In this document: positions 15,517 to 62,738 of the stretch, piece by piece | Layout: every line of letters begins with the position of its first letter | Numbering within the stretch: position 1 is the first letter of the stretch | From: a virus | IMG/VR virus record: IMGVR_UViG_3300045988_183505 | Location: 1-64,000 of that record | Direction: 5' to 3' (one strand) | DNA length: 64,000 nt | Notes under the pieces: generated by a model | What the model was told of the DNA's origin: nothing | The model's database searches: none | The model's input: the letters and a program-made list of their open reading frames with translations, nothing else | Position numbers and translations under genes: made by a program

Positions 15517-15545
15517 ATTATAGCATATTCGGTATACATTGTCAA
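15517..15545 (-). promoter_or_regulatory. consensus sigma-A-type promoter (TTGACA-17 nt-TATAAT, TGc extended -10)
   Basis: Minus strand reads TTGACAatgtataccgaatatgcTATAAT. The spacer carries a degenerate copy of the class I operator. Confidence 0.75.
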
Positions 15546-15583
15546 CCGTTGTGGCGTAGAATATCCGTTATTTATCCCCTTTG

Positions 15584-29500: not shown

Positions 29501-32320
29501 ATTGAAAGAATTGGTATTCGCTGAAACTTCCACAATCGTTCTGCCGTCATACCCATCTACCTTTGTCAGATATTCTGCATTATCCGAACTGGAAACAGCT
29601 CCATGAAATGGGTTGATATAGAAATAGCCGCTATCCACTTCAAGGTTATCCATATTGCCAACATAGGTACTCATATTTTCATAATTGATACCATACTTTA
29701 AGTCGGCTCTATTGTTGTAAAGCTCATCGAAGTTTCTCAATGATGCAATCCATTCGTCCTGTTCATCACCCAGATACTCATACAGCCGGAATGCAACTGT
29801 ATCTTCATAGGTGTCTGGAGCAAGCACATTATCAATCAGCTTATACGGCAGATTCGCAAACGACTGAATCACAGAGATTGCAACAATTGCAACTGCCAGC
29901 TGGCAACTGATACCGAAAATTGCAGCAGCACCAATCAGCACCACTTTGGCAGCGAACGCAGATACTGCTTTTGTCACTGCGGTAAAAGCTTTGCCCAGCT
30001 TTGTGTTCGCCAACTTCTTTTTCCAGTCCAGCTTATTCTTTACGCCGCTTTTCCAACTCTTGAACGACTGGTTCATCTGCTGGACTTTCTGCTTACCGGA
30101 ATATGCTTTGTTTCGCACTTTAGAAACTTTACCTGTCTTTTTCGGCTCAACTTTCTTTTTCTGTGCTTTTGCAGACGGCGGTTTGTGAGAACTCCTCAGC
30201 TTTCCAACCTTTTCCCTCTGCGTCTTCTTTATCTGCCGCTTTGCTTTTCCTTTTTTATGAGCATTCCGAACAGTCGTCACCAGATTCTTGGTGTACTTCT
30301 GTGTTCGCTGTACGCCACGCTTAATCGTTTGCAGTTCGCCGATTGTCTGCTGACTTTCCATGTCATCATTCAGCTTCAACAAGCCACTTGCTGCCATTGC
30401 CGACAAGGAAGTGGACATTGTATTTCCAGAAAGAGAAGTCAATGAGGCTTCCTTATTCTTCGTAGCTTGAAAAGCACCCTTCTTATTGATTTCACCAATA
30501 AGCTTTCTGGAACTTTCTGAAATGCCCAATGCTTTCATCTGGGCAGCCGTCAACCCTTCCAGCATTTGATGGTCGAATTTTCCGTTGACCTTAATGAACT
30601 GGAATCCTGCTTTTTCGGCTCTTTTCAGGAACTCACTGTTTATCTGGTGCAGGTCTTTCAATTTCATTGGATTCGTTGCAGAGAATCGCTTTCCGAAATC
30701 TTTATTGATTGCTTCCAGATGCTTGGACGCAGTAGAAAACATTCCCTGCTCTATCTCTGACAGCTTTACCGATTCAGCCATTGCTTCCAGCTTGTTTTTC
30801 ACATCTTCTGGTAAAGCACCGCCTGAACGCTGAATATCTTTTTTGATACTTCCAATGAGATTGCCTAAGTCAATTCTGTCTTTATAAGTTGCAGCTCCAC
30901 GATTGATAGACAGTTTGGCAATCAAATCCTTCTGTTCTTTCGTGAGCTTTACTGCCGGATTTGTAGATAATGCAGTAAGTGTGTCAATTTGATACTGATT
31001 CAGTTCCACAAAAGAGGACATAGACAACGCAACCATCTCTGTGTTTATGTTGTCTACGATGTTTTTTGCAGCCCCAAACGTGTACTGTTCCTTGAAGTCT
31101 GTATGATACTCCTGCTTATACTGAGACATTTGCATTGCCTCAGCATTCTTTTTTTGCACCGCTTGCTTTTTTGTCCGGATATTTGTACGAGTGGCGGCAT
31201 CATGAACAGTTTTCTGCCGCTTCTCATGCCGTGATAAAATCTGCTTGCGGAGCTTTTCATCGGTGACAACTCTGCCATTCATGACAACAGTGTCATTTCC
31301 CAGTACAACTGCGGTCTTACGTCTGCTCTGCGGAAGGCTGTGCGATAACGCTTCACCATTTCTGTCCAGACGCTGATTCAGCATAGACTGGGTATCTCGC
31401 TTTTCTTCACCGCCGCCCCACTGTTCCATTGTCTTGCCGACATTCATCACGCCAGCAACTACACCGCCCAGTTCATCAAGATTCCGAAGATACATATATG
31501 CCAACTGGTCTGTATATGTACCACGATTCGTCATCTCCGGAGTGGCGTTTTCCTGCTGCATTTCTTTTTGGGTTTCAGCATTGCCGTAACCCATTGCATT
31601 GTACGTCTTAACGAAATCGCTTGCCTGTACTTTTTGACCGCTTGCTTCATTTTTCTTCTGCTCATTGTAATCTGACTGTTCCTTTCCATTCAGATGTACT
31701 GTGTGCAGAATGTCTGTCAAAATCAGCTGCTGGTCTGCATTCAAGCTATCCTGAACAGTCTGGCTGGAAAGAGCCTTCTCCAGCTCCTCACGGCGTTCAA
31801 ACGAAGTGACTTCGTTGAGTGTGATTGCCTCTTGCAGTGCAGCTCCTGCATCTGGAGACAGCTGCTTTCGGATAGAATCATCACTGTAAAGTGCATGGAG
31901 CAGGTCTGTCTGTTCTTCTTTCAGCGTCACATTTTGCGGTGCAAATTTGATTCCATCTGTCATCGTATCAAATTTATACCGGTCTATCTCTGCTGGAATT
32001 TCTACCAGATACTGTCCATTCAACTTCTGTCCGGCAGGCGTTACTTCCACGCCCATCCTTTTCATCTCAAAGATGAATTTACGTTCTTCTGCCTTAGATG
32101 TAAACGCCACACGTTCATAATCCTGCTTCCGGTACTCCGGCTTTGGCGGCTCGCCATTTTTTTGCTTCTGCGGCTTTAGTGTGCCGTTTTCAGCGTGCAG
32201 GCTTGCAAACATATCATCTACTGCGGCGTTATACTGTCTGGCAACTTCATTGTATGCTCGTGACGATTTATCTGCTGTACCATTGGAGATAAATTCACCG
32301 AAGTTAGAAAGCCCACTCAT
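26579..32320 (-). CDS. giant T4SS-associated protein (1913 aa) with a central TM segment and a C-terminal NlpC/P60- or CHAP-like cell-wall hydrolase region
   Basis: K-rich stretch followed by TM helices (AKVVLIGAAAIFGISCQLAVAIVAISVI). C-terminus has WVGRGHYS..SASCTAGNSEDFARFIY..LLPADLLRHG, a Cys..His papain-like pattern. Confidence 0.7.
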   Translation of the reverse strand: MSGLSNFGEFISNGTADKSSRAYNEVARQYNAAVDDMFASLHAENGTLKPQKQKNGEPPKPEYRKQDYERVAFTSKAEERKFIFEMKRMGVEVTPAGQKLNGQYLVEIPAEIDRYKFDTMTDGIKFAPQNVTLKEEQTDLLHALYSDDSIRKQLSPDAGAALQEAITLNEVTSFERREELEKALSSQTVQDSLNADQQLILTDILHTVHLNGKEQSDYNEQKKNEASGQKVQASDFVKTYNAMGYGNAETQKEMQQENATPEMTNRGTYTDQLAYMYLRNLDELGGVVAGVMNVGKTMEQWGGGEEKRDTQSMLNQRLDRNGEALSHSLPQSRRKTAVVLGNDTVVMNGRVVTDEKLRKQILSRHEKRQKTVHDAATRTNIRTKKQAVQKKNAEAMQMSQYKQEYHTDFKEQYTFGAAKNIVDNINTEMVALSMSSFVELNQYQIDTLTALSTNPAVKLTKEQKDLIAKLSINRGAATYKDRIDLGNLIGSIKKDIQRSGGALPEDVKNKLEAMAESVKLSEIEQGMFSTASKHLEAINKDFGKRFSATNPMKLKDLHQINSEFLKRAEKAGFQFIKVNGKFDHQMLEGLTAAQMKALGISESSRKLIGEINKKGAFQATKNKEASLTSLSGNTMSTSLSAMAASGLLKLNDDMESQQTIGELQTIKRGVQRTQKYTKNLVTTVRNAHKKGKAKRQIKKTQREKVGKLRSSHKPPSAKAQKKKVEPKKTGKVSKVRNKAYSGKQKVQQMNQSFKSWKSGVKNKLDWKKKLANTKLGKAFTAVTKAVSAFAAKVVLIGAAAIFGISCQLAVAIVAISVIQSFANLPYKLIDNVLAPDTYEDTVAFRLYEYLGDEQDEWIASLRNFDELYNNRADLKYGINYENMSTYVGNMDNLEVDSGYFYINPFHGAVSSSDNAEYLTKVDGYDGRTIVEVSANTNSFNVRTEGNSTSASFINGKNDASIRGDYSTDNTAGGFDDYTNASLAGYSAIESGHTCNIKDIISMTDTLYQFTLDDFDDASMTSILGRSPSQINFDNFCAKVKSVFKWAGDAISAWWNGTEQPESFKDALNLSGTVSFKTIQNYATTLFECSHQQEIQLKVEYYPVADYLTGKNAGNKFVLKGGTDKTQDLTQKQASEVKLCVSPVTSKFEVAMTSNGKVEPFVEKGNNKYFLNENNGFDITVSTEDNMTSDNVQKLCLWSGFTNNEATYQKIVSKLREGCWSLKSDVTVDWTTIRQSVWGDWKDSESEAEKSGEDALEGALKKAYDKVEIPDSTYWVSADKNTFRKTSYSKPAFAVRDSQKVDSQTKQVFVRREMQYAYLYNNMLYYHFQDDPAIAGMNIIYEYVKFNEKLSLECDSSITNWQWARQETDGTTVYKYKDDVGRTQLMKYLYDQNKISFQYYYEKDGKWDLQSTNRDEQPDYCYPHAKWANRYKTQYRTKYSGNAVALQQRTEIYERKCQGHEYSYCGGHICVHSQGVVFSATNEQMAMTGIYSTKSSETRADDFVLKDNGYGAIKGKYDRSKFDYSTALTYSQSGGCESPLEDPQGSVTGMEGVNLIISGTEWAEGTDGIDASGISSRAHMLRDIFDVDCGIKKGRYLFPIKSGKPTTKAFLQQYEGWTEDNMVLALHRMAMDWNDCYGFDVPLELNMTKSWKDRSNNENVNPLTALSDTDVKNIMDALKTKYGASFTQERQDTVEYALRWVGRGHYSEMHTGHGFLSTADKGRSVSVSVAGETKTVQYSASCTAGNSEDFARFIYFKAGKVNRTGSSLSNEVSTKYGWQVMTSRDSLLPADLLRHGMTKGYGWVQESVLNAAEEGDGWSGSFISAMNRFKDESYVIYLGELDEDIKLQCGRTLQAGVPLCIDLTTYNGKGNIYLHGESNHNALTTKAGKTYTWLMNIDRPADQGKVYKAKISFH

Positions 32321-39565: not shown

Positions 39566-41041
39566 TTATTTTTGTATCAGAACAACATACTTTCTTTGCC
39601 CTTCCGATTCCTTGTCAGCATAATCTATTTGCCAGTCGTTACTCAAAAGGTAATCAATTGTAACTGCACTTTTCTGATTCAGAATGATTGCATCAAATTG
39701 AAACGTGTCCATAAATTTCTCTATGTCACCCTGCTTGTTGAAGGACGCATCACGAAAACAATTTGCTCCAGACAATGTTTCTTCATCAAAAAAATCTGCT
39801 CTTGCATCAACAAAATCCGGTAAACCATTATAGATAAGATATGCTCCCAAGTCATAATCATTATACGCTCTCTGAAAATTTTTTTCTTTCAGGTACTCTA
39901 TCAGTCCAGTAGAAACTTCTTCATATTTACAAGATTGGTATTCCCTTATTGTTTCAGCAAACAGGAGACAAGAGCAGCAACCACAAACTATCATCACAAG
40001 TGCATTTTTAGAAAACATTTTGCACTTTACAAATAGCGTGCTATCCATTGTCTTGATAACTTCAAGCAGCATTGGAATCATTGCAATTTCCATATACATA
40101 TACATACGAATATGGATTCCAGTCATGCCAAGCATCATTACGATTGGAAATATTTTTTTGAGTGAAATATTCTTTTTCTGTAGGACAAAAAATATGAAAA
40201 ACAGAATAAGACAAATCACAATTGGATAAAAAAGAAAAGTTGCTTTGTACCATTCATGTACACCATCTTTTGTATAAGAAACATTGTGAAACAAAGCATA
40301 TCCATACAGTTTAATGCCATATGGATTTATCATTCCAATCAAAATACTGACAACCAATGCGATGAAATCTGTTCTTGCGTTTTCCTTACTCTGTCTATGA
40401 AAAAGATTGCCTACTTGAAAATCCGGAATCAGATTCATAACAGCAAATACAGCTAAAATTGCAAAGTAAAAAAGCATACTTGAACCATGCAGATTTGCCC
40501 ATAGCAATGATATGATTCCCAGTACAAAAATCTTTTTCTTTGATGGCTTATCCTGTTGCAGGCAGTAATATGCCAGTGCAAAAAGCATACAGTCAAAAAC
40601 TCTTGTTCTTGCCAGATAGCAGCTGTCCACAACTATCCATATCACTACGCAATGTGCAAGCAATTTTGAAAAAGCATTTCCGTTCCAGTTTTTCAAAAAT
40701 GTAAACCGAAACACTAATGCACATATTGTTGATGTGGCAAATACAAAAGCAATTACTGCATTCATTATCGGCTGAAATAGAACAGAGAATCCGTAAGCAA
40801 TCACTGTTCCAAGCCATGAGTGCTGTATTTCTGAACCGCCACGTTCCTGTGCAATCCACGAGTAAGCATCTACGCCGTGAAAGTTTGGTTTTCCATTCAC
40901 GATAGCTTTTCCCAACACACAATACCAGTTGAAATCTCCATCATGCGATTCCATTAAACAAATCGCACAGAACACAGTGACCAATCCTGTAATCAATGAA
41001 AATAAAATTATATCTACGATTTCTTTTTCTCTGCTTTTCAT
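39566..41041 (-). CDS. polytopic membrane protein, GT-C glycosyltransferase-like (weak) with a C-terminal soluble domain
   Basis: Its ATG overlaps the topoisomerase stop (ATGA). More than ten hydrophobic segments. The early loop DGDFNWY and LWANLHGS are reminiscent of GT-C enzymes. Confidence 0.5.
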   Translation of the reverse strand: MKSREKEIVDIILFSLITGLVTVFCAICLMESHDGDFNWYCVLGKAIVNGKPNFHGVDAYSWIAQERGGSEIQHSWLGTVIAYGFSVLFQPIMNAVIAFVFATSTICALVFRFTFLKNWNGNAFSKLLAHCVVIWIVVDSCYLARTRVFDCMLFALAYYCLQQDKPSKKKIFVLGIISLLWANLHGSSMLFYFAILAVFAVMNLIPDFQVGNLFHRQSKENARTDFIALVVSILIGMINPYGIKLYGYALFHNVSYTKDGVHEWYKATFLFYPIVICLILFFIFFVLQKKNISLKKIFPIVMMLGMTGIHIRMYMYMEIAMIPMLLEVIKTMDSTLFVKCKMFSKNALVMIVCGCCSCLLFAETIREYQSCKYEEVSTGLIEYLKEKNFQRAYNDYDLGAYLIYNGLPDFVDARADFFDEETLSGANCFRDASFNKQGDIEKFMDTFQFDAIILNQKSAVTIDYLLSNDWQIDYADKESEGQRKYVVLIQK

Positions 41042-43236
41042 TTCTTCCCCCAGCCTGTTTTTTTCTTTCCCCAGCCGGAAGAAGATGATGTGCTTTTCTT
41101 TGCACCCCATGAAGATTGTTTTGGTTCAGCTTTCTTTGAACCGTTTCCTTTTGGCTTTGAATCCACAAATTCAAATCTGGTTTTATGATTGCTCTTATCC
41201 AAAACCAATTTCGCCTTAAATGATTTTCCAGCTTGGGACTTAAATGTATATGCCTTTGTTTTTCCCTTTGCAATCAAATCTTCAAGGTCGCTTTCTTTCA
41301 TCTTATGACCGCAAATTTCCAACCCGAAAGAGAACTTACAAGTACAATACCAACCGTATCGTCCATACTTCAATGCCGAACCACAACAAGGACAGATGTG
41401 TTCTTTTCCACTACCTTTATTGTTGAAGTTCTCTAAATGCTCATGGTTCTCTGAAAGAATTTTCCTCGTAGTGTCTGCAACATAAGTTTCTACTTCTTTC
41501 AGATAATTTTCTTTGTCCAACGCTCTGGTTGCAATCGCATTTAAGCTTGATTCCATCTCCGCAGTTTTCAGTGGCGAAATCAACTGCTCGTCATACTTTT
41601 CTACAATCGGAATGACTTTTTTCCCAAACTCAGTCGGAGCAATTTTCTGTTTTGCATCTACTGTGATGAACTCCTTTTCTTTGAGCTTTTCAATAATAGA
41701 TGCTCTTGTCGCAGAAGTTCCAATGCCGCAAGTCTTAATCTGTTCTCGCAGTTCTTCATCATCAATCAACCGTCCTGCTTTTTCCATTGCAAGAATCAGA
41801 GAACCGGTCGTGTAAGCAACAGGCGGTTTGGTCTCCATGTTATAAACACAGAAAGCATCAACTGATACGGTTTCACCTTTTCTCGGAACAGGCTTATCCG
41901 CAATATCATCACCTTCTGTATTTTCCTTGAATCCGGTCTGCTTGATAATTCGATAACTTTCAAAAAATCTTTCTTTGTTCTGGTGAATGTACACGATAGA
42001 AACTGCATCGTAAATGAACGGCGGTTTCATTGTGTTCTGGAATCTTTTCAGAATAACACTGTATACCTTCGCTTCCAGACCGGATAAGTTGTTAGGGTTG
42101 CCTTGTAATGTTGGAATAATTGCGTAGTGGTCGGTAACTTTACTATCATCGACATATCTATCCGGAATCTGGTAGCCTTTCTTTCTCAAATCTTCTGCAA
42201 CTGCACTTGAAAGAAAACGGCAATCAGTTCTTGGGTATGTAGTGTATTTTGCCTCATAGAGTGACTGTGCAATCGAAAGCGTGTTTGCCGGAGAAATCTT
42301 AAATGCTTTGGAACAATACGCCTGTAAATCTGCCAAATTGAACAGATAGGGAGCATACTCTGTTTTGGTTGTTACCTTAACATTATCTACCGTCAGCACT
42401 CTGCTCTGATTGCATTCTTCAACAAGTTCCTTTGCCTGCTTTTCTTGCAAAAAGCCATTTTCATTATACAGGTCATCACTTTCGTAAAACCGGCTTTCTT
42501 TCACCGCTTTCCATGATGCGAACTTGTCTGCCTTAACTCCATAATAATATGTTTTCGTAAATTCATCAATGTCTTTTTGCCGGTTTACAATCATCGCCAG
42601 CGTTGGTGTCATCACACGTCCGCAATTCATCAATTTTCCGGAAGTCAATGTGAATCCTTCTGTAAAATTCATGCCAATCAGCCAGTCTGAAATTGCTCTT
42701 GCATAGCCGCTGTCAATCATCGGCTGATACTCTGCATAAGGCTTTGCATCACGAATGCCGTTCAGAATAGATTCTTCTGTATAGCTGTCAATCCACACAA
42801 CTCGTTCATCAATTTTAGGTGCTGCCTTGAATATCTGATTGCGGATAAGAGCCTGAATATAGATTCCTTCTCGTCCACTATCGCCTGCATAGTAAATTCG
42901 TTCCACATCTTTTCGTGTGTACAGTGACTTTACAATCTTGAACTGCTTATATGTAGACTTTTGAGGTTCATATTTGAACTGCTTTGGAATCATCGGCAAA
43001 TGCTCTTTACTCCATCTGCCGCCCCAGTCTGGGTTCTGCACTTCCGGAGAGCTAATTGCAATCAAATGTCCAACCGCCCATGTGATAATCACATCTTTCT
43101 TCAAAACAGGGCTATATCCTTCCACATAACCATCGGTTTTTTCAGAGGGCTTTACCCCCAGCACCTTTTTGTACTCCTGTGCCACTAACGGTTTCTCTGT
43201 AATGATAATCGTACTCAAACCTGTTCTCCTTCCCAA
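41038..43236 (-). CDS. topB: DNA topoisomerase III (type IA)
   Basis: TOPRIM IIITEKP..DSGREG. Active-site block KYTTYPRTDCRFLS. Zn ribbon CPCCGSALKYGRYGWYCTC. Basic tail with three W-G-x-K-K repeats. Confidence 0.9.
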   Translation of the reverse strand: MGRRTGLSTIIITEKPLVAQEYKKVLGVKPSEKTDGYVEGYSPVLKKDVIITWAVGHLIAISSPEVQNPDWGGRWSKEHLPMIPKQFKYEPQKSTYKQFKIVKSLYTRKDVERIYYAGDSGREGIYIQALIRNQIFKAAPKIDERVVWIDSYTEESILNGIRDAKPYAEYQPMIDSGYARAISDWLIGMNFTEGFTLTSGKLMNCGRVMTPTLAMIVNRQKDIDEFTKTYYYGVKADKFASWKAVKESRFYESDDLYNENGFLQEKQAKELVEECNQSRVLTVDNVKVTTKTEYAPYLFNLADLQAYCSKAFKISPANTLSIAQSLYEAKYTTYPRTDCRFLSSAVAEDLRKKGYQIPDRYVDDSKVTDHYAIIPTLQGNPNNLSGLEAKVYSVILKRFQNTMKPPFIYDAVSIVYIHQNKERFFESYRIIKQTGFKENTEGDDIADKPVPRKGETVSVDAFCVYNMETKPPVAYTTGSLILAMEKAGRLIDDEELREQIKTCGIGTSATRASIIEKLKEKEFITVDAKQKIAPTEFGKKVIPIVEKYDEQLISPLKTAEMESSLNAIATRALDKENYLKEVETYVADTTRKILSENHEHLENFNNKGSGKEHICPCCGSALKYGRYGWYCTCKFSFGLEICGHKMKESDLEDLIAKGKTKAYTFKSQAGKSFKAKLVLDKSNHKTRFEFVDSKPKGNGSKKAEPKQSSWGAKKSTSSSSGWGKKKTGWGKK

Positions 43237-44090: not shown

Positions 44091-44369
44091 TCAGTCCTCA
44101 CTTTCATTTAAGGATTTCAGCAATACTTTCATCTCCAGATATGACACTATCTTTTTTAAGGCATTCAGCCGAATCGGGTGTCCTACACGATAAAACAGCT
44201 TATCCACCACATTTCTCGTCATACCTGTTTCCCTTGCCAGCTTCCGCTTAGAAACACCTTTCGCTTCCATCGCTTCTGCTATTTGCTGAACGCTTTCTTC
44301 GGGCAGATATACCATGATGCCTTCTTCCCTCACCGCATACAGCAATCTTTGCATTCTTGGTCTTGCCAT
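44091..44369 (-). CDS. helix-turn-helix (XRE-like) regulator
   Basis: VSKRKLARETGMTRNVVDKL is an HTH pattern. Alternative start at 44315. Confidence 0.5.
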   Translation of the reverse strand: MARPRMQRLLYAVREEGIMVYLPEESVQQIAEAMEAKGVSKRKLARETGMTRNVVDKLFYRVGHPIRLNALKKIVSYLEMKVLLKSLNESED

Positions 44370-44425: not shown

Positions 44426-44965
44426 TTAATCGCCTGCCTCTGCATTCTGGTAAAAAGTATTCAGCTTATCCTGTTCCGATTCACAAAGCAGTACCTTGCT
44501 TTTGAACTCACAATAGCGAACATTTGAACCATAGCTTTTCCACACAATTTCCGGATTCAAAATATATACATTTGCACTTCCGGATTTCATGATATACAGT
44601 ATCTTTTCTTCTCGCAGCACTCTGACTGCTCTTGTAACGGAAGATTTTGAAACCTGAAAATATTCTGCCAAAAAAGTATAACTGCATACCAAACTATTCA
44701 GTCCGTCCATGCGGTCTGCGATAAACAGGTAAATCTGCATTGCCAGAGCATTCTTTTGCGTCAAAGCAATCAACTTATCTGTTCCATCAAGGTTCGTCTG
44801 TGCAAACCTCTCATAAGGGGAGTGCCGTTCTTTTCTGTGCAGCTTCTCCTGCATTTCAGTAATCTTCTGGAGTGCCTGCTCACGTTCTTCAAAGGTTACA
44901 TCATATTCTGCTGGATTATCTCCTACAGAAAAACTTCCCTTCGCTTCAAGTCCACTATTTTTCAA
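44426..44965 (-). CDS. repL: RepL-like winged-helix replication/maintenance protein
   Basis: TTG start 9 nt after AAAGGAG. NALAMQIYLFIADRMDGLNSLVCSYTFLAEYFQVSKSSVTRAVRVLREEKILYIMKSGSANVYILNPE resembles firmicute RepL. Confidence 0.55.
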   Translation of the reverse strand: MKNSGLEAKGSFSVGDNPAEYDVTFEEREQALQKITEMQEKLHRKERHSPYERFAQTNLDGTDKLIALTQKNALAMQIYLFIADRMDGLNSLVCSYTFLAEYFQVSKSSVTRAVRVLREEKILYIMKSGSANVYILNPEIVWKSYGSNVRYCEFKSKVLLCESEQDKLNTFYQNAEAGD

Positions 44966-44995
44966 GTGACACTGCTCCTTTCTGTATTCAACTCG

Positions 44996-45221
44996 TGACT
45001 ATCGCAATCGTCATTTCTGAATATGTCCTATTCAAATTTGACTATGCCGCAATCATCGTATGACTATATTATAGCACAATAACCCAAGGTGTTCAATCGT
45101 TGTCATGTATGAAAAATCGTTATTTTGTTTCACATTTTTTGTGTGGAACGTACATGGATTGTGGAAAACCTGTAACCGAGTAGTCACGCTGTGACTATAG
45201 CAGTAGTCACCACATGACTAT
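44996..45221. repeat. TGACTAT repeat cluster (5 direct copies plus 2 inverted TAGTCAC) around the repL promoter
   Basis: TGACTAT at 44996, 45039, 45061, 45192 and 45215. TAGTCAC at 45181 and 45204, forming TAGTCAC-gct-GTGACTA. Confidence 0.6.
45068..45096 (-). promoter_or_regulatory. promoter of the repL-like gene (TTGAAC-17 nt-TATAAT, TGc extended -10)
   Basis: Minus strand reads TTGAACaccttgggttattgtgcTATAAT. Confidence 0.7.
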
Positions 45222-45387
45222 TCCCCGACTCATAAAAAAACGTGAATCTGACGCATTTTCGGGACTTAATGTCTGTGAAGGGGTATTTGTCTCTCTTTAT
45301 ATCTTATTACGCCATCAAGCAGCTGAATGGTGTTCGCCTTTGAGCCGTTGCTCGCTTCCTAACGTATTTCCCATTTGCTCACAACGG

Positions 45388-45432
45388 GGACTGCTAGTTT
45401 GCAAGTTGCTATTTCTATCAGCAGTCCTTTTG
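45388..45432 (+). terminator. plus-strand intrinsic terminator (possible 3' end of a small RNA)
   Basis: GGACTGCT-24 nt-AGCAGTCC followed by TTTTGAG. There is no T-tract in the minus orientation. Confidence 0.5.
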
Positions 45433-45741
45433 AGGGACAGAAAAGTGAGAACACCGTGAAGTGAAATAAACTAACGTAAACTGTACAACAAACAGGATTG
45501 CCTCTCCCTATTAGAGTGAAAAAAGCTAATTCTTTTTTCCAGAAATGGGGCTTTATGCAATTTACCCAACTCATCAGCCAACGGCTTTCTCATGCTTTTT
45601 ACTAAATCCATAAGCCGTTGAGACGTTCTGCCGTTCCAATTCCATTCCTGTTTCCAAGTAAGGCAGCTATGCAGTGCCTGTAATTCATCAGACCGTTCCT
45701 GCAATTCAATCAACAATTCTGTATTGCTATGTATTTTATTT

Positions 45742-45790
45742 GCACCAGTTTTTAACTGGTGCATTGCCATAAAGCTTTGCTTTATGGCAA
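45742..45790. other. two adjacent perfect hairpins next to the iterons
   Basis: GCACCAGTT-TTT-AACTGGTGC (45742..45762) and TTGCCATAAAGC-TTT-GCTTTATGGCAA (45764..45790). Confidence 0.6.
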
Positions 45791-45822
45791 ATAAGAGTAA
45801 TACTATAAGCACACTGTATTGA

Positions 45823-45951
45823 ATGGGAATACAGTATTAGCTAATACCATATGGGTAATTCTGTATTAGCTAATAGATTGCTAACTGTACATGGGTAATA
45901 CTATAAGCTAATACTATAAGCATACTGTATATGGGTAATAGATAACTAATA
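45823..45951 (+). repeat. iteron array, four units ATGGG(T)AAT..(C/G)TAATA (candidate oriV)
   Basis: Units start at 45823, 45851, 45891 and 45931 (spacing 28, 40 and 40 bp), for example ATGGGTAATTCTGTATTAGCTAATA. Confidence 0.65.
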
Positions 45952-46203
45952 CTACATAGGTTAAGTATTATAATGGCATTTTTGCCCCAAAGTTTCTTTG
46001 CAAAGTCTGCTATAATTGCAAATCAGTTCTAAGCTATCTACAAGCCGTTTTGAGAGCTTTTTGCTTTTGCCAGCAAGTTTTCTTGCAAGCGTTGTTAGAA
46101 CGCCGCAGAACGAATCCTAATACACTTTCCGCTGGGTTTCCAGCTTAATTCTTCTCACATTCCACTTTCTTCCCGATATGCCTCTTTGCTTTCTAGGCAC
46201 GCT

Positions 46204-50114: not shown

Positions 50115-50196
50115 TGGTTATACATAAAACCTTCCTTCTTAGGGCTGTTTGTCTGCGGATAAGCAGCCTTTTTTCAAAACAGAAAGAGGTGATACT

Positions 50197-50733
50197 TTGA
50201 ACGGCAATTGCCACTTTATCTTTGGTGCAAGTGTTGGTGCATCTCTGGCAATGAATATTGATAAGTTGGATTTCTTCTTTCCCCGAATTATGGACACACC
50301 GGAAATGGCAGTCTTGTTTGTTATGGGTGGTCTTCTCGGCGGTATCTTTCCGGATATTGATAACCCTACTAGCTATGTTGGAAAGCTGACAGCACCAGTA
50401 AGCCGATGGCTCGGCAAGGTTTCAGCTACAATGGGGAAGGAAGGCTGGAATCACAGAGGTATTCTTCATGACCCGATTGTCTATTTGATAGGACTGTTTT
50501 TATGCACTTATCAATTTCCACCGCTGATAGGATTCTTTGTCGGCTGTCTCTCTCACTTGTTTTTAGATATGTTCAATCCAGTAGGCATACCATTTCTTTT
50601 TGGCGTAAAACATCTTCGGCTTGCAAAAGTCCCTAGCAGCAGTAAGCAAGCAATCACTTTGACGTGGATTGCTACTGGAGCAGTATTCTTTGCAGGACTG
50701 GCAGGGTGCTTCTATCCTGCTCTTCTATCTTAA
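50197..50733 (+). CDS. YdjM-family membrane-bound metal-dependent hydrolase
   Basis: TTG start after AGAGGTG. H..FG..., GGIFPDIDNPTS, NHRGILHD and LSHLFLDMFN match YdjM/DUF457 motifs. Confidence 0.65.
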   Translation: MNGNCHFIFGASVGASLAMNIDKLDFFFPRIMDTPEMAVLFVMGGLLGGIFPDIDNPTSYVGKLTAPVSRWLGKVSATMGKEGWNHRGILHDPIVYLIGLFLCTYQFPPLIGFFVGCLSHLFLDMFNPVGIPFLFGVKHLRLAKVPSSSKQAITLTWIATGAVFFAGLAGCFYPALLS

Positions 50734-50776
50734 ATCATACGCAAATAAACCCGCATAAACTGAAAGGAAACATAAA

Positions 50777-51757
50777 ATGAAAGCTTCGTTATTTTTGCTG
50801 ATTATCTTCGTCCTTGTTGTTCTTGCTTCAAGGGTTCGTGTTGTGCCACAGGCATACATTGTAGTTGTGGAACGACTGGGAACATTCTATAAGCAGTGGG
50901 GAGCTGGTGTCCATTTTTTGATGCCGGTACTGGATAAGCAGGCAAGAAAAATCTCTATCAAGGAGCAGGTGGTAGACTTTAAGCCACAGGCGGTTATCAC
51001 AAAGGATAATGTTACCATGCAGATTGATACTGTTATCTTCTATCAGGTCATGGACGCTGTAAAGTATGTGTACGGCGTAGAAAAGCCAATGCAAGCGATT
51101 GAGAATCTGACTGCGACAACTCTCCGTAACATCATCGGCGATATGGAACTGGACGCAACGCTGACTTCTCGTGATGTTATCAATACTCGTATCACCGATA
51201 TTCTTGACCACGCAACCGACCGCTGGGGAATCAAAGTTCTGCGAGTAGAATTGAAAAACATTCTGCCGCCAGCAGAGATTCGTGATGCTATGGAAAAACA
51301 GATGAAGGCAGAGCGTGAAAAGCGTGAGAAAATTTTGAAGGCACAGGGCGAACGTGAATATCAGGTCACTGTTGCACAGGGCGAAAAGGAAGCCAAAATT
51401 CTTCGGGCAGAGGCTGATAAGCAAACCGCAATCTTAAAAGCAGAGGCAGACAAGGAAGCTGTGATTCTTCGTGGTGAAGCAATCAAGGAGCAGAAAATGC
51501 GTATCGCTGTTGGTGAAGCTCAGGCTATTCGTGAAGTACAGGCTGCAACTGCGGAAAGCTTGGTGAAGCTGAATAATGCAAATCCGAATCAAGCTGTCCT
51601 GACATTAAAATCGCTGGAAGCCTTTGAAAAGGCTGCGGACGGCAAAGCAACTAAGATTATTATTCCCAGCGAGATTCAGGGCGTGGCTGGTCTTGCTGCC
51701 GGATTGAAAGGCGTACTGGAGCAAAATAGTGCCGAAAGCAATACAGAAGATAAATAA
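50777..51757 (+). CDS. SPFH/band-7 (stomatin/prohibitin-like) membrane protein
   Basis: N-terminal TM segment, then VVERLGTFYKQWGAGVHFLMP..VITKDNVTMQIDTVIFYQV..TLRNIIGDMELDATLTSRD..WGIKVLRVELKNI. Confidence 0.9.
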   Translation: MKASLFLLIIFVLVVLASRVRVVPQAYIVVVERLGTFYKQWGAGVHFLMPVLDKQARKISIKEQVVDFKPQAVITKDNVTMQIDTVIFYQVMDAVKYVYGVEKPMQAIENLTATTLRNIIGDMELDATLTSRDVINTRITDILDHATDRWGIKVLRVELKNILPPAEIRDAMEKQMKAEREKREKILKAQGEREYQVTVAQGEKEAKILRAEADKQTAILKAEADKEAVILRGEAIKEQKMRIAVGEAQAIREVQAATAESLVKLNNANPNQAVLTLKSLEAFEKAADGKATKIIIPSEIQGVAGLAAGLKGVLEQNSAESNTEDK

Positions 51758-51811
51758 TCGTAAGTATATAAGTACAGCAGCTATACAAAACAACAAAATA
51801 ACGATATTGTA

Positions 51812-51840
51812 TTGACAGTGCAGTTTTTTCGTATTATAAT
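51812..51840 (+). promoter_or_regulatory. perfect consensus promoter TTGACA-17 nt-TATAAT
   Basis: TTGACAgtgcagttttttcgtatTATAAT. Confidence 0.8.
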
Positions 51841-51846
51841 AGTAGT

Positions 51847-52097
51847 TGTGGGAAACCACTAAGCTGGTTGCTCTTTTTCCTACGCTCCGGAAACTTTTTC
51901 ACTCATGTTACGTTTCCAGAGCTAGGCTTGAACGCACCGCCGGAAGGTGCTTAATGATAAAAACGGTGTAATCCGATGGACAGTCCGTTATACGTTTGAA
52001 AGTATCCGTTGTCGGGCTGACAATAGGTACACCGAAGTAGCAGGCATTGTCAATATCGGCAGTGCCTGTTTTCTTTTACCTTGAAAGGAAGATTACA
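51847..52097 (+). promoter_or_regulatory. about 250-nt structured 5' leader (candidate riboswitch, attenuator or small RNA) of unknown class
   Basis: GTGG-GAAA-CCAC (51848..51859). Long hairpin 51879..51894 with 51912..51926. GCACC-N7-GGTGC (51934..51950). The terminator comes last. Confidence 0.55.
52039..52077 (+). terminator. intrinsic terminator inside the leader, just before the RBS of the 52098 gene
   Basis: CAGGCA-16 nt-TGCCTG followed by TTTTCTTTT. Confidence 0.6.
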
Positions 52098-53309
52098 ATG
52101 GAAAATTTACAGCAAAGCACCTATGAAAATGCTGGTCGCTTGATGAATCTTTATGATTACATGGCTGCTATCGGTGATGACAACTATGAAAATCTGTACG
52201 ATGATATTACCCAAGATGTCGATGTGAGATACAGAAGTGATGACAGTGATTATCAGGAATGGGTTGACCAGCTGGCAAAAGAGCATGATTTGTTCTCGAA
52301 AGAAAGCATGGAGAAAATCAATGCTCGATTTGAACCTCAGATTTTTGTAGCAGACGATTCTGCCAAAATCGCTCCTGTTGTATATGATAACCAATACGAC
52401 ACCTATCTGACGTTGGACAAATTTGCAGATGAACTTGAAAGCTATGCAGATATGGACATTGAAGGGGAGAATGAGGTTTATCAAGAAGGTTACTTTTCTC
52501 CTTATTACATGGACGAACCGCCAACAAAAAAAGTTTCCTTTTCCGGCACTTTGGAAACAAGTATGCGTGAACTGGTTCAGGACTTTTATCAGTGGCTGGG
52601 TGAAATTGACGATGAAATCGCACAGCATCTGGAGCAGGTGAGTGAAGATAAGAATATCCCAGCAAGTGAGGTTGCTGTCCTTGCAATCAGCCAGTCTGAC
52701 CGATTGATGACAGCAAACGACTATCTCGTTGCATCGTCTCCAGATATTTATTCCATGTATGAAGATATTGCTGATTACGGATTCAATTACGATGTGAATT
52801 TAGATAACAGCCTGCTCCAGAGCAAGATGCCAGAAATCGAAAAAATTATTCAGGAACATGGTGGCGTTTCCAATCGTACACAGGACGAACTGGAAGACCG
52901 CTTTGAACCACAGGTGCTTGTACGAGACGGCGGCGAAGCAATTGTTACTCCGCTGGTGTACGACAATCAGGAAAATAAGTATATTACAGTCAGCAGTGTG
53001 GCTGATACGTTGAAGGAGATGCTGATTCCTGATGTTCATGGTGAAATCACTGCTGAAAATGGTGAATCTATTCCGTTCAATGCACACATGGACGTAGAAA
53101 GCGAATCTAAACGTATCCTTGCAGACAGCTACAAGCAAAATGCAACATACTTGAAGGAGGCACTTGTCGAAGTAAGAGAGGCATACAAAGATGATATGCC
53201 GAAGCTGAAAGCTACTGTTGACCATTTCAAAGAAAAAATGTCCATTCTGTATGATAAGCGGCAATCAGAAGTGCAGCCCAAAAAAGATTCACAGAACATA
53301 GAGCGATAA
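52098..53309 (+). CDS. highly acidic protein with an internal tandem duplication, ends KKDSQNIER
   Basis: The ATG at 52098 follows GAAAGGAAG. Repeats are ARFEPQIFVADDSAKIAPVVYDNQYDTYLT and DRFEPQVLVRDGGEAIVTPLVYDNQENKYIT. Confidence 0.6.
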   Translation: MENLQQSTYENAGRLMNLYDYMAAIGDDNYENLYDDITQDVDVRYRSDDSDYQEWVDQLAKEHDLFSKESMEKINARFEPQIFVADDSAKIAPVVYDNQYDTYLTLDKFADELESYADMDIEGENEVYQEGYFSPYYMDEPPTKKVSFSGTLETSMRELVQDFYQWLGEIDDEIAQHLEQVSEDKNIPASEVAVLAISQSDRLMTANDYLVASSPDIYSMYEDIADYGFNYDVNLDNSLLQSKMPEIEKIIQEHGGVSNRTQDELEDRFEPQVLVRDGGEAIVTPLVYDNQENKYITVSSVADTLKEMLIPDVHGEITAENGESIPFNAHMDVESESKRILADSYKQNATYLKEALVEVREAYKDDMPKLKATVDHFKEKMSILYDKRQSEVQPKKDSQNIER

Positions 53310-53372
53310 TTGTGATAACGGTTACGATGTGATAAAATTAAACAAATACACATTAGAAAGTTGGGATAAATT

Positions 53373-54239
53373 ATGGGTTTTGCATCAAAAGAACAAGTTG
53401 ACACAATTTCAGCACTAACTTCGCAGCTATATCGCTACTACTCTACCGCCTATTATGAAGGAGTGTACAGCGGCAAATTAGATAAAGCCATTGAACACGA
53501 CTTGATTCCATGGCTTTTGGAATTGAAAAAAGAAGTGGAAGCAGAAGGTTGCCACTTAGATTCGATGGGGGTTTATTTCAGAAATGACAGACCTGTCTTA
53601 CAGTATGGCAGAACTGTCGTATGCAGTTATGACGCTATGGACAATGCCACTATGCGAAAGCTAAAGCTTCCGCTTACCGATGTTAAATTGGTTCGGAAAG
53701 AAGTAGAGGCTGACCTTTATCAGATGATAATGGACTTAAAATCTGGTATGACTGTGGAACAGTTTGCAGAGAAGTATCGTGGAAATGATATATACCACGG
53801 CGTTCCAGAACTGGAGCAGCACATACTGGAGCAGATAAGTTCCGGCAACAGTGATGACGTAACACTTAATGCTATAATCGCCAATGGAAAATCAGTTTCT
53901 GTTATTAGAGCAAATCTTCAATCAGACCTTGCCGTAGCAAAATTTCTATCTCAAAACTACCTTGTTCGTGTGGGATATAACGATGGTAAGATTGTTCTGG
54001 GAGATTCTGTTATAGACCGTTATGCCATTCGGGTTCGCTGTATAAAAAGTGACGCAAATGCAAGTTTCAAAAAAGACCCACTCAAAATCAAATGTTTTGA
54101 GGTGGATTTGAAATTTGCAAATGGGAACAGAAGTTTACTGACATTTAGACCGAGTGATAGCCCTTTTTATGTTCCGCAAATAGAAAAGGTTTTAACTGAA
54201 AATGCAATTGGAGAGGAGAAGAAACAACGTGGACGGTAA
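53373..54239 (+). CDS. hypothetical protein, ends EEKKQRGR
   Basis: 288-aa ORF. Confidence 0.55.
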   Translation: MGFASKEQVDTISALTSQLYRYYSTAYYEGVYSGKLDKAIEHDLIPWLLELKKEVEAEGCHLDSMGVYFRNDRPVLQYGRTVVCSYDAMDNATMRKLKLPLTDVKLVRKEVEADLYQMIMDLKSGMTVEQFAEKYRGNDIYHGVPELEQHILEQISSGNSDDVTLNAIIANGKSVSVIRANLQSDLAVAKFLSQNYLVRVGYNDGKIVLGDSVIDRYAIRVRCIKSDANASFKKDPLKIKCFEVDLKFANGNRSLLTFRPSDSPFYVPQIEKVLTENAIGEEKKQRGR

Positions 54240-61687: not shown

Positions 61688-61691
61688 AAAC

Positions 61692-62738
61692 ATGAGTGGC
61701 TATGCAATAGACAGCAATGGCAATGCTGTTGCTATCAATAATGCAAAGCAAATACAGATGGTACAACCTTTGGAAAATCGCAGGAAGGAGCTGGTGAAAT
61801 ATGTTTATCAGCTCACTCCCCTGCTCCAGAGTGCAGGGTTGAATGTGAATACAAATCAGTTCACTTTGTTATTTTCTCCAAACGGCATACTCGAAAAAAT
61901 TGTGCTGTTTGCCAAAATACCATTACAGTCTAACAGCCCTTTAGTAAAGCAGGCTTTTGAAGCAAGTACCCATTATGATTATCCGTTTCAAAGCAATCAG
62001 CAGAAGGCTTTTCTAAAAAGCATTTATTGCATTCAGGTAAACTACAAACCAACATGGTGGTATGTTAGTGCCGAAGTTATTACGTTAGAACGGAATATCA
62101 TAGACGGCATTTGGATTTCTGCCAAAAAAGAAGCCTCTATCCCTTATTATGCGTTTCAATCGAAATACCAGCTGAAAAGTGTCGAACAGCCAATCCAGTC
62201 GCCGCAGACGTTCTGGTGTATATCTCTTACCGGAGAATCTTTACCAGACAACGTGAACGACCTGTTCCCACTCATGGCACAGATTCCAAGTAAAAGTACG
62301 ATACTTGCAGATGCAGTATCAAAAGTAAATCAGAACATCGGAATTTCTGCAAAGGATTCCAATAGCAATCAAATCTCCAGCTGTTTAAGGCTGATAAATT
62401 CACCTCTGAATGGCAAGATATATCCTTTGTACAAGGAACTGAAACAATTTATTTCCAGAACATATCCGTATGCAGATGATGAACACGGTGCATTTAACAT
62501 CTCTTACAAAGATGATGCAATCCGTTTCCAGTTGCAGGACGGACGAAAAGCAGAGATATTCGTCAAGGGTAATGCTTCATCTCCCACCTTTGTCTCTGGT
62601 GGATATACCGTAAAGGGCATATCTGCTATGGAAGAAGCAATCGCCAATGGCAACTGCTTCCGTAAGACAACATGGTTTGATGCTAAAGCAAGCCCTTATA
62701 TCCTGCGTAAACCACGAAAAGAAAATAAACCGAAGTAA
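61692..62738 (+). CDS. hypothetical protein, ends LRKPRKENKPK
   Basis: 348-aa ORF. Its start lies 4 nt after the upstream stop. Confidence 0.55.
   Translation: MSGYAIDSNGNAVAINNAKQIQMVQPLENRRKELVKYVYQLTPLLQSAGLNVNTNQFTLLFSPNGILEKIVLFAKIPLQSNSPLVKQAFEASTHYDYPFQSNQQKAFLKSIYCIQVNYKPTWWYVSAEVITLERNIIDGIWISAKKEASIPYYAFQSKYQLKSVEQPIQSPQTFWCISLTGESLPDNVNDLFPLMAQIPSKSTILADAVSKVNQNIGISAKDSNSNQISSCLRLINSPLNGKIYPLYKELKQFISRTYPYADDEHGAFNISYKDDAIRFQLQDGRKAEIFVKGNASSPTFVSGGYTVKGISAMEEAIANGNCFRKTTWFDAKASPYILRKPRKENKPK

Follow-up and report, generated by a model that had tools for sequence, protein, structure and literature searches.

The stretch of DNA examined here (positions 1 to 64,000 of IMG/VR record IMGVR_UViG_3300045988_183505, hereafter the window) is part of a conjugative plasmid of the Firmicutes type. 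On its + strand, at about 52 kb, a predicted non-coding RNA of about 230 nucleotides (nt) extends from a promoter to the end of an intrinsic terminator, which stands just before the Shine-Dalgarno (SD) sequence of the first gene of an operon of at least 11 kb. Strong purifying selection both between and within lineages, compensatory changes at paired positions and strand bias, all read from the sequences, indicate that this leader is functional. As to what it does, we see an even chance that the region 51847-52098 is a cis-acting 5′ leader that gates the downstream operon twice, i.e., as a transcription attenuator and as a translational gate.

The promoter, the leader and its terminator

The region is made up of the following elements, in which P denotes a paired element and J a linker:

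51778..51808, + strand: A-rich block (CAGCTATACAAAAYAACAAAATAACG..., including AATAACGATATT) upstream of the −35 hexamer; 25 of 26 positions the same in both lineages that carry the RNA
51812..51840, + strand: promoter of the SigA/sigma-70 type, TTGACA-17-TATAAT, with a predicted transcript start near 51847
51850-52 and 51854-58, paired with 51865-69 and 51871-73, + strand: hairpin P1, 3 nt from the predicted 5′ end (RNAalifold consensus)
51879..51894, paired with 51912..51926, + strand: imperfect hairpin P2 (RNAalifold), with compensatory changes
51934..51950, + strand: hairpin P3, GCACC-GCCGGAA-GGUGC, with an invariant stem and one change in the loop
51951-63, + strand: A-rich linker J3/4, which carries the A-run GAUAAAAAC
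51956..51986, + strand: dual-partner segment GAUAAAAAC...GACAGUCC, made up of the A-run and the P4 5′ strand (CGGUGUAAUCCGAKGGACAGUCC); 30 of 31 nt the same between lineages
51964..52034, + strand: long imperfect hairpin P4, with closing stem CGGUGUA/UACACCG, inner stem CAGUCCG/CGGGCUG and a variable apex
52035-39, + strand: linker J4/5, 5 nt
52039..52078, + strand: intrinsic terminator P5, with 5′ arm GCAGGCAUUGUC, loop AAUAUC, 3′ arm GGCAGUGCCUGU and U tract UUUUCUUUU
52070-77, paired with 52084-91, + strand: P6, the U tract with the SD (RNAalifold; 8 pairs)
52098..53309, + strand: gene for an acidic protein of 403 amino acids (aa), isoelectric point (pI) 4.2, with two internal RFEPQ...VYDNQ repeats; first gene of the operon that the leader would gate

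An initial annotation of this DNA, made from its letters, had described a perfect consensus promoter followed by a structured non-coding leader, a terminator and a ribosome-binding site, and this layout is indeed present. The promoter matches the consensus hexamers at 12 of 12 positions, as does a single other site in a scan of the whole window (15545..15517, − strand), and its perfect hexamers together with the conserved A-rich block upstream suggest that it is near-maximal. The block itself may be either UP-element-like or the site of a regulator. At the aligned place in the diverged lineage, L007, the promoter reads TTGACT-17-TATAAT, and its spacer is not conserved, unlike the A-rich block.

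The second perfect promoter (15517-15572, − strand) precedes a leader of about 115 nt with two hairpins and then a 115-aa gene (15403-15056, − strand), for which we find a weak, SSB-like hint only (NCBIfam E 0.006). The two promoters have a similar initial transcribed sequence and a common upstream motif, AATAACG(G)ATATT, which occurs in the 64-kb window only at the 51812 promoter and at 15560-15572 (− strand; 0.01 occurrences expected). Because the motif is found nowhere else in the window, co-regulation of the two promoters is suggested. The −35 region of the 51812 promoter is also complementary to the terminator: TATTGACAGTGC (51802-51821) matches the 5′ arm and loop (52044-52058) at 11 of 12 positions, and CGATATTG is complementary to 52051-58 without a mismatch. 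Transcripts reading in from the upstream operon, but not those started at 51847, could therefore block the terminator; this pairing is absent in L007 and may be due to chance, and we dropped it as a mechanism.

The predicted fold of the leader (51847-52100) has a free energy of −83.4 kcal/mol, as compared with −65.0 ± 4.5 kcal/mol for dinucleotide shuffles (z = −4.06; none of 200 shuffles as good). Its hairpins follow one another like beads on a string, with no multi-helix junction. A pyrimidine-rich linker, J1/2 (CUCUUUUUCC), separates P1 from P2, whose loop of 17 nt (51895-51911) includes a core, ACUCAUGUUA at 51901-51910, that is invariant between the lineages. The stem of the terminator (52039..52070) has 12-13 base pairs (bp), six of them G-C, and is followed by TTTTCTTTT; no site between 45 and 60 kb looks more like a terminator than P5. 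As annotated, it lies directly upstream of the ribosome-binding site: the SD, AAAGGAAG at 52084..52091, begins 6 nt past the U tract, and 28 nt separate the terminator stem from the ATG at 52098. Since the U tract and the SD are predicted to pair, the U tract probably acts as an anti-SD.

The same annotation saw no credible open reading frame (ORF) in the leader, and we concur. There are two mechanical ORFs of 41 and 45 aa, neither of which looks coding. The first begins with TTG at the predicted transcript start. The second (51947-52084) begins with a GTG that abuts an SD-like GGAAGG and has no SD at a usable distance; it is open in L007, and its 15 nucleotide changes produce 11 amino acid changes. 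A mini-ORF AUG at 51954 is ACG in L007. We rejected leader-peptide (i.e., ribosome-mediated) attenuation on the grounds that almost all changes in ORF 51947-52084 are non-synonymous and that the AUG is lost in L007.

Constraint and covariation in two lineages

We found the RNA in only two lineages, which agree in gene order: the window type (L001-L006, L009, L022, L121 and L122) and the diverged L007. All between-lineage figures of divergence and covariation given here constitute one comparison, the window against L007. If the leader were free of constraint, it should have diverged about as far as the synonymous sites of its flanking genes, which differ by 0.53-0.75 and serve as our neutral yardstick. 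Instead, the two leaders are 78% identical, and the divergence from promoter to ATG is 0.22. Divergence is unevenly spread over the parts: it is 0.06 in P3, 0.04 in the 5′ strand of P4 and 0.23 in its 3′ strand, 0.39 in the P4 apex, 0 in J4/5 and 0.10 in P5, and the P2 stem, J2/3 and the P4 apex fall within 0.4-0.6. Within the window type, four sublineage loci show no change at any of 286 positions from the −35 to the ATG; at the same four loci, divergence of 2-8% is seen in the 403-aa gene, and 0-4 changes in the 54 nt that precede the −35.

This pattern bears on the simplest account of the element, namely that it is passive: the terminator would end the upstream LPD11-YdjM-SPFH operon and trim a promoter that is too strong, and the hairpins would only stabilise the RNA, with no switch involved. 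Consistent with such a role, the stretch from the SPFH stop codon (51757) to the promoter holds no terminator, and the terminator fold dominates in the window type. However, constraint extending over about 150 nt (divergence of 0-0.10 versus the neutral 0.53-0.75), and differing between the two strands of P4, exceeds the needs of a terminator or stabiliser, and the cross-complementarity described below is significant in both lineages. We therefore regard a purely passive element as quite unlikely.

The changes that did accumulate largely respect the predicted pairing. In the RNAalifold structure, 95.6% of cells pair, as against 36-46% when partners are slid by 1-3 columns, and pairs changed on both sides number five in the true register versus 0-2 in the slid ones. 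The hand-checked register contains 46 unchanged pairs, 6 with one-sided changes, 4 compensatory, 1 repaired and 3 broken. In P1, one pair has changed in a compensatory manner (A-U to G-C) and another from A-U to G-U; in P2, there are three compensatory pairs, one repaired mismatch and one change from G-C to G-U. When 12 substitutions were placed at random in the P1 and P2 stems, at least 18 of the 19 pairs were left with a probability of 2.5e-5, or 1e-3 under transition bias. Thus, P1 and P2 keep their pairing in the homologous leader through 4-5 compensatory double changes.

Most of the hairpins that had been annotated from the window fare well in this comparison. The imperfect hairpin of roughly 15 bp (our P2) is real and covaries, and GCACC-N7-GGTGC (our P3) is real with an invariant stem. 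L007 lacks the GNRA-capped GTGG-GAAA-CCAC hairpin that the window has; what both share instead is a different hairpin, P1 (51850-58/51865-73). In the stem of P4 the changes consist of one-sided substitutions that keep pairing (U-A to U-G and U-G to U-A) and one broken pair. P5 is kept with one change from U-G to U-U and an extra apical G-C pair, and all eight pairs of P6 are kept despite a one-position move of the C in the U tract.

The structure includes 7-8 G-U pairs, and the + strand folds 9 kcal/mol better than the − strand, both of which point to a + strand RNA. This matters for an alternative that the initial annotation had raised, a Frpo-type promoter, and for the broader class of single-stranded DNA (ssDNA) elements to which it belongs, i.e., promoters of the Frpo/ssi type or single-strand origins that are used after conjugative entry. 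The plasmid is conjugative, its polyvalent-protein and primase-like genes are typical of leading regions, and the hairpins could form in DNA as well. Yet the promoter region (51630-51870) has no significant ssDNA structure (z = +0.24 for the − strand and +0.55 for the + strand); the complement of the −35 lies downstream and that of the −10 upstream, so the hexamers cannot share one stem; and the G-U pairs, the U tract and the coupling to the SD point to a + strand RNA. PLSDB should contain F-like plasmids with Frpo, and the region drew no match from it (below). We disfavour an ssDNA element as highly improbable.

Searches for further relatives returned none. The leader had no blastn match in PLSDB (query 51780-52110, word size 11, 72,556 plasmids) or among phage records. 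Scans of IMG/VR with three patterns gave chance matches in coding genes only; those of GTDB species genomes gave 11 matches, all of them chance and in coding genes; and those of JGI metagenomes, in which the gap range excluded the window type on purpose, gave 15, again all chance. These matches sat in such genes as those for glutamate synthase and SSB, and in a phage gene. A covariance model built from the two sequences (R1) was run on the window and on every fetched locus without detecting another copy. Homologues of the 403-aa and 288-aa proteins led to RNA-bearing loci of the window and L007 types only, and two copies of the 288-aa gene occur in unrelated contexts without the RNA. In the chromosomal NfeD-SPFH-MBOAT loci (Ruminococcus-like) that hold the nearest SPFH relatives, the spacer downstream of SPFH is unrelated to the leader.

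Two exclusive folds and the gating of the operon

Three features of the region had escaped the initial annotation: the A-rich block that is conserved ahead of the −35, the P6 pairing between U tract and SD, and a second fold that excludes the first. The segment 51956-86 (GAUAAAAACGGUGUAAUCCGAKGGACAGUCC) is complementary, in one antiparallel register, to the 5′ arm of the terminator, to its 3′ arm and to the U tract. In the window, the duplex that this segment would form with 52034-52078 has −21.9 kcal/mol (z = −3.8; 1 of 1000 shuffles as good), and in L007 the corresponding duplex with the terminator has −25.8 kcal/mol (z = −4.2; 0 of 1000). The leader thus appears to have two exclusive folds, one with P4 and the terminator, and one in which 51956-86 pairs with the terminator and the U tract. 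A need to serve two partners is the likely reason for the much stronger conservation of P4 on its 5′ side. The two lineages differ in the balance between these folds: with the core of the alternative helix enforced, the fold lies 2.0 kcal/mol above the minimum free energy (MFE) in L007 and 9.3 kcal/mol above it in the window, and in L007 the alternative fold is itself the MFE at some transcript lengths. At the one substituted position of the terminator stem, L007 has U where the window has G; by inspection of the lists of partners, this costs the terminator a pair (U-G to U-U) and gives the alternative helix one (an A-G mismatch to A-U).

The operon has little means of avoiding this element. 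Within the leader, the sole promoter-like site (51996..52024) matches at 9 of 12 positions and is not kept in L007, and there is no promoter in the 28 nt between the terminator and the ATG. Because the operon has no promoter of its own and the 9/12 site is unconserved, its transcription must cross the terminator.

In the gating model, an RNA started near 51847 would fold co-transcriptionally into P1, P2, P3 and the long hairpin P4. With P4 formed, P5 would fold, and most transcripts would stop at about 52078, giving an RNA of some 230 nt; those that read through in this first fold (P4 + P5 + P6) would have their SD masked by the U tract. In the second fold, 51956-51986 would leave the 3′ strand of P4 and pair with the 5′ arm of the terminator, then with the 3′ arm and then with the U tract. 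The strong terminator hairpin would thereby be removed and the A-run would take the U tract off the SD, such that the operon would be both transcribed and translated. The choice between folds could depend on an RNA-binding protein, on another RNA, or on the kinetics of transcription in a new host. What the sequences show directly is the promoter and terminator, the purifying selection, the covariation, the complementarity behind each fold and the lack of another promoter for the operon; that the two folds switch expression, and in this direction, we infer.

Several points weigh against this gating model. The covariation comes from one comparison of two diverged sequences, and the register of P2 was picked with both sequences known. 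P3, P4 and P5 offer no covariation for either fold because they are conserved in sequence, and complementarity is the sole backing of the second fold. In the window type, the terminator fold (with P4) wins at every transcript length tried, and the alternative costs about 9 kcal/mol. Moreover, the alternative fold as modelled leaves the 3′ arm of the terminator paired up to the U tract, and a block of termination is accordingly not certain; read-through may require an additional factor, or may be a simple leak. Finally, we found no regulator, ligand or antisense promoter that is conserved in both lineages.

We found no convincing classical antiterminator that would leave the 3′ arm of the terminator unpaired. 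One candidate, which joins the 3′ strand of P1 to the 5′ arm of the terminator, was dropped as weak (6 + 3 bp), and another, a helix of the 3′ strand of P4 with the 3′ arm of the terminator, was dropped because it would end at the U tract itself.

The lack of a convincing classical antiterminator would be in keeping with processive antitermination in cis, with the leader acting as put, EAR, conAn2 or canT RNAs do: it would modify the very polymerase that made it to read through 52039-52078 and any later terminators. The setting is also that of conAn2 of pLS20 and canT of Tn916, in which a large, structured, promoter-proximal RNA heads a long Gram-positive conjugative operon with terminators downstream (PMC8191782, PMC11658703); and, like the present RNA, conAn2 and canT are poorly conserved in sequence and absent from Rfam. 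They differ in that they span 260-600 nt and act processively on distant terminators. In addition, conAn2 follows conAn1 and needs 20-nt inverted repeats that flank a core of about 240 nt (PMC8191782), whereas the approximately 56 window ORFs that were scanned include no ConAn1 (PF17362), and the leader has no conAn2-like 20-nt terminal inverted repeat and no long-range pairing of its 5′ and 3′ ends in the MFE or consensus folds. With canT the comparison was by description and not by sequence (PMC11658703). The + strand holds no further terminator-like site with a long or G+C-rich stem between 52100 and 60000, which would leave little for processivity to do, and read-through transcripts from upstream would also carry the RNA, in which case the terminator insulates nothing. 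On balance, processive antitermination seems to us a doubtful explanation, to which we assign a low probability.

A different possibility is that the RNA acts in trans, as a stand-alone or dual-function small RNA (sRNA) whose conserved unpaired regions (i.e., the P2 loop ACUCAUGUUA, J1/2 CUCUUUUUCC and the A-run) pair with plasmid or host mRNAs, and that the operon is expressed by leakage through the terminator only. A perfect promoter with an UP-like block, followed by a strong default terminator, would yield much terminated RNA, and hairpins arranged like beads on a string, together with a hairpin at the very 5′ end, are typical of Firmicutes sRNAs. The invariant 10-nt core of the P2 loop, carried on a freely covarying stem, would also suit such a role; it is complementary at 9 of 10 positions to AAACATGAGT at 61688-61697, which spans the ATG (at 61692) of a 348-aa gene. 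This match is within chance, however, since 4 such matches were seen and 5 were expected, of which we estimate that about 0.09 would fall on a start codon. An sRNA would also leave unexplained the conserved contact between terminator and SD, the U tract-SD pairs and the second fold; and the operon, having no promoter of its own, is attenuated by the element whatever else the RNA does. We consider an sRNA acting in trans, alone or with a dual function, unlikely, if still deserving of attention.

Known attenuators and the plasmid context

The initial annotation had left the class of the RNA undecided among riboswitch, attenuator or leader, and sRNA. Purifying selection and compensatory changes favour a leader or attenuator, possibly an sRNA as well, but the separate hairpins without a multi-helix junction do not have the look of a metabolite aptamer. 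The failure to match any riboswitch class, reported at the same time, agrees with Rfam: a covariance-model scan with Rfam 15 found no match at gathering score in the whole 64-kb window, and at E ≤ 10 there were only unrelated weak matches in the window and L007, with no family common to both. The leader does share with terminator-type riboswitches the order of promoter, conserved structured sensor, terminator and SD, as well as mutually exclusive folds. It differs from them in having no Rfam aptamer and no multi-helix junction, in that its expression platform is the most conserved part, and in that it precedes a plasmid operon of acidic proteins and not a metabolic or transport operon. Resemblances to an ANTAR hexaloop, a BglG-type RAT and a CRISPR repeat were noted by eye only and are not convincing.

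Countertranscript attenuators, such as those of pT181, pIP501 and pCF10, occupy plasmid leaders in which several stem-loops and a terminator directly precede the regulated gene, and they depend on an antisense promoter located in the leader or immediately past it. The present leader has the stem-loops and the terminator just before the gene; the antisense candidate of the window, TTGCCA-18-GATAAT at 52278..52249 (− strand; 10/12), is inside the gene, and L007 has only a 9/12 site elsewhere. Read on the − strand, P4 and the UUUUUAUC that follows it could form a terminator. Countertranscript-driven attenuators of these plasmids are discussed alongside a closer counterpart, the zipper-type attenuator cATT, which is known from the pLS20 family and other Gram-positive conjugative plasmids; there, long operons carry terminator-based attenuators placed 0-26 nt upstream of the SD of their first gene (PMC13401043).

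The likeness to cATT is considerable. Both are 5′ leaders on Gram-positive conjugative plasmids, in which sequences upstream of the terminator are complementary to it and produce two exclusive folds, and in both a weak hairpin (here P3) is followed by a long imperfect hairpin (P4) and a terminator (P5) 0-26 nt from the SD. Yet cATT lies upstream of conAn1 in the conjugation operon, whereas the present leader heads another operon whose 403-aa first gene has no Pfam match, and PF17362 is missing from the scanned ORFs. The pairings also differ. In cATT, the long hairpin stays and is extended by pairing of the SL-2 3′ strand with the 5′ arm and loop of the terminator; here, cATT-style complementarity is limited to 4 bp (UGCU:AGCA, by inspection), and the 5′ strand of the long hairpin and the A-run switch partner to both terminator arms and the U tract. 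Judged by its published description, cATT shows no evident sequence similarity to the leader. The leader would work in a manner similar to cATT but falls outside the cATT family; we class it as a new RNA, with two members so far, of a known kind, the terminator-based leader or attenuator of a conjugative-plasmid operon.

From about 46.4 kb onward, all genes lie on the + strand (LPD11 protein, 106-aa protein, YdjM and SPFH, then the RNA and its operon), and several proteins of this run are strongly acidic (pI 4.1-4.9). After the 403-aa gene, the operon continues on the + strand in this order: genes of 288, 362, 127 and 96 aa, then one for a 1547-aa LPD1 polyvalent protein, and a CHC2 primase-like gene. 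The small operon proteins, including that of 403 aa, have no family match in Pfam, PHROGs, NCBIfam or PDB. The 403-aa protein has an AlphaFold2 pLDDT of 35 and occurs in two lineages only among 1.84e9 representative proteins, and tblastn matches of the LPD1 protein in PLSDB are confined to the domain and never exceed 34% identity. With its acidic proteins, its LPD1 polyvalent protein and its primase, the operon resembles, by analogy, the early or establishment genes of conjugative elements; its placement in a leading region is an assumption.

The acidic-protein genes seem to be exchanged or fast-evolving, and some boundaries of mosaicism fall at the RNA. L121 matches the window exactly in the SPFH gene and the leader, but its 403-aa gene is 8% different (compared with window 51758-54239); in L009 and L122, the 288-aa gene differs by 9% from that of the window, and the neighbouring genes by 1-2%.

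Transfer and partition genes in the window include those for a type IV secretion system (T4SS) coupling protein, a VirB4-like ATPase, a Mob_Pre relaxase, topoisomerase III and ParA/ParB, with the T4SS genes on the other strand at 22-38 kb. A probable replication origin at 44426-46000, where the GC skew changes sign and gene orientation flips, comprises a RepL-like gene (44426-44965, − strand), a helix-turn-helix gene of the Cro/C1 type (44091-44369, − strand) and iteron-like repeats (TAATACTATAAGC, 45798-45940). Two long ORFs have no Pfam match at all, one of 1913 aa in the transfer region (26579-32320, − strand) and one of 514 aa between the relaxase and topoisomerase III genes (39566-41110, − strand). 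In public assemblies, 920 indexed blocks contain the exact 403-aa protein, many of the contigs being 50-350 kb long, and the plasmid is for this reason taken to be very common in gut metagenomes.

The plasmid SPFH protein (window 50149-51757) is 78-82% identical to the chromosomal SPFH of Ruminococcus-like bacteria (L023, L024). The chromosomal gene follows NfeD and the plasmid gene follows one of the YdjM family, and the nearest non-plasmid relatives, one of which is named Ruminococcus, are beside dockerin and glycoside-hydrolase genes. From these comparisons, the plasmid SPFH looks like a captured host gene, which suggests that the host is Ruminococcus-like.

Distant plasmid-like relatives were found in two IMG/VR records of 136 and 177 kb (L138:5119-5772 and the same range of L139), which encode Rep3, DUF932 and a CHC2 primase. 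In both, a CRISPR-like array precedes a homologue of the 127-aa protein of the window (36% identity). The array consists of 6-7 copies of a 33-34-nt unit (GAAGCAACTCGCACGTTAAGTGCGTGGCGTAAG) spaced 51-68 nt apart, with a strong bidirectional terminator at its end, and that of L139 has one unit fewer at its 5′ end than that of L138. There is no cas gene within 12 kb, and the array is not homologous to the RNA of the window.

Considered together with its operon, the leader could conceivably be an RNA checkpoint for plasmid establishment. A donor would keep the operon shut by termination and masking of the SD, and the RNA would flip to its extended fold only in a particular state, e.g., just after entry into a recipient or when a plasmid-encoded RNA-binding factor is lacking, in which case it would do for a Gram-positive plasmid, by means of RNA, what Frpo does in driving ‘zygotic’ expression; the abundant terminated RNA might have a role in trans besides. 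This is speculative, and we think it improbable as it stands. The practical value of the element is limited by its narrow distribution (i.e., two lineages) and by the lack of an assigned function for the genes of the operon. If the gating model is true, however, the leader represents a second design beside the recently described attenuators of conjugative plasmids, one in which a single invariant strand picks either its own hairpin half or the whole terminator and U tract, and in which termination is coupled to masking of the SD. And if the leader times the expression of these genes, a Gram-positive plasmid would do so without the ssDNA promoters of F-like plasmids.

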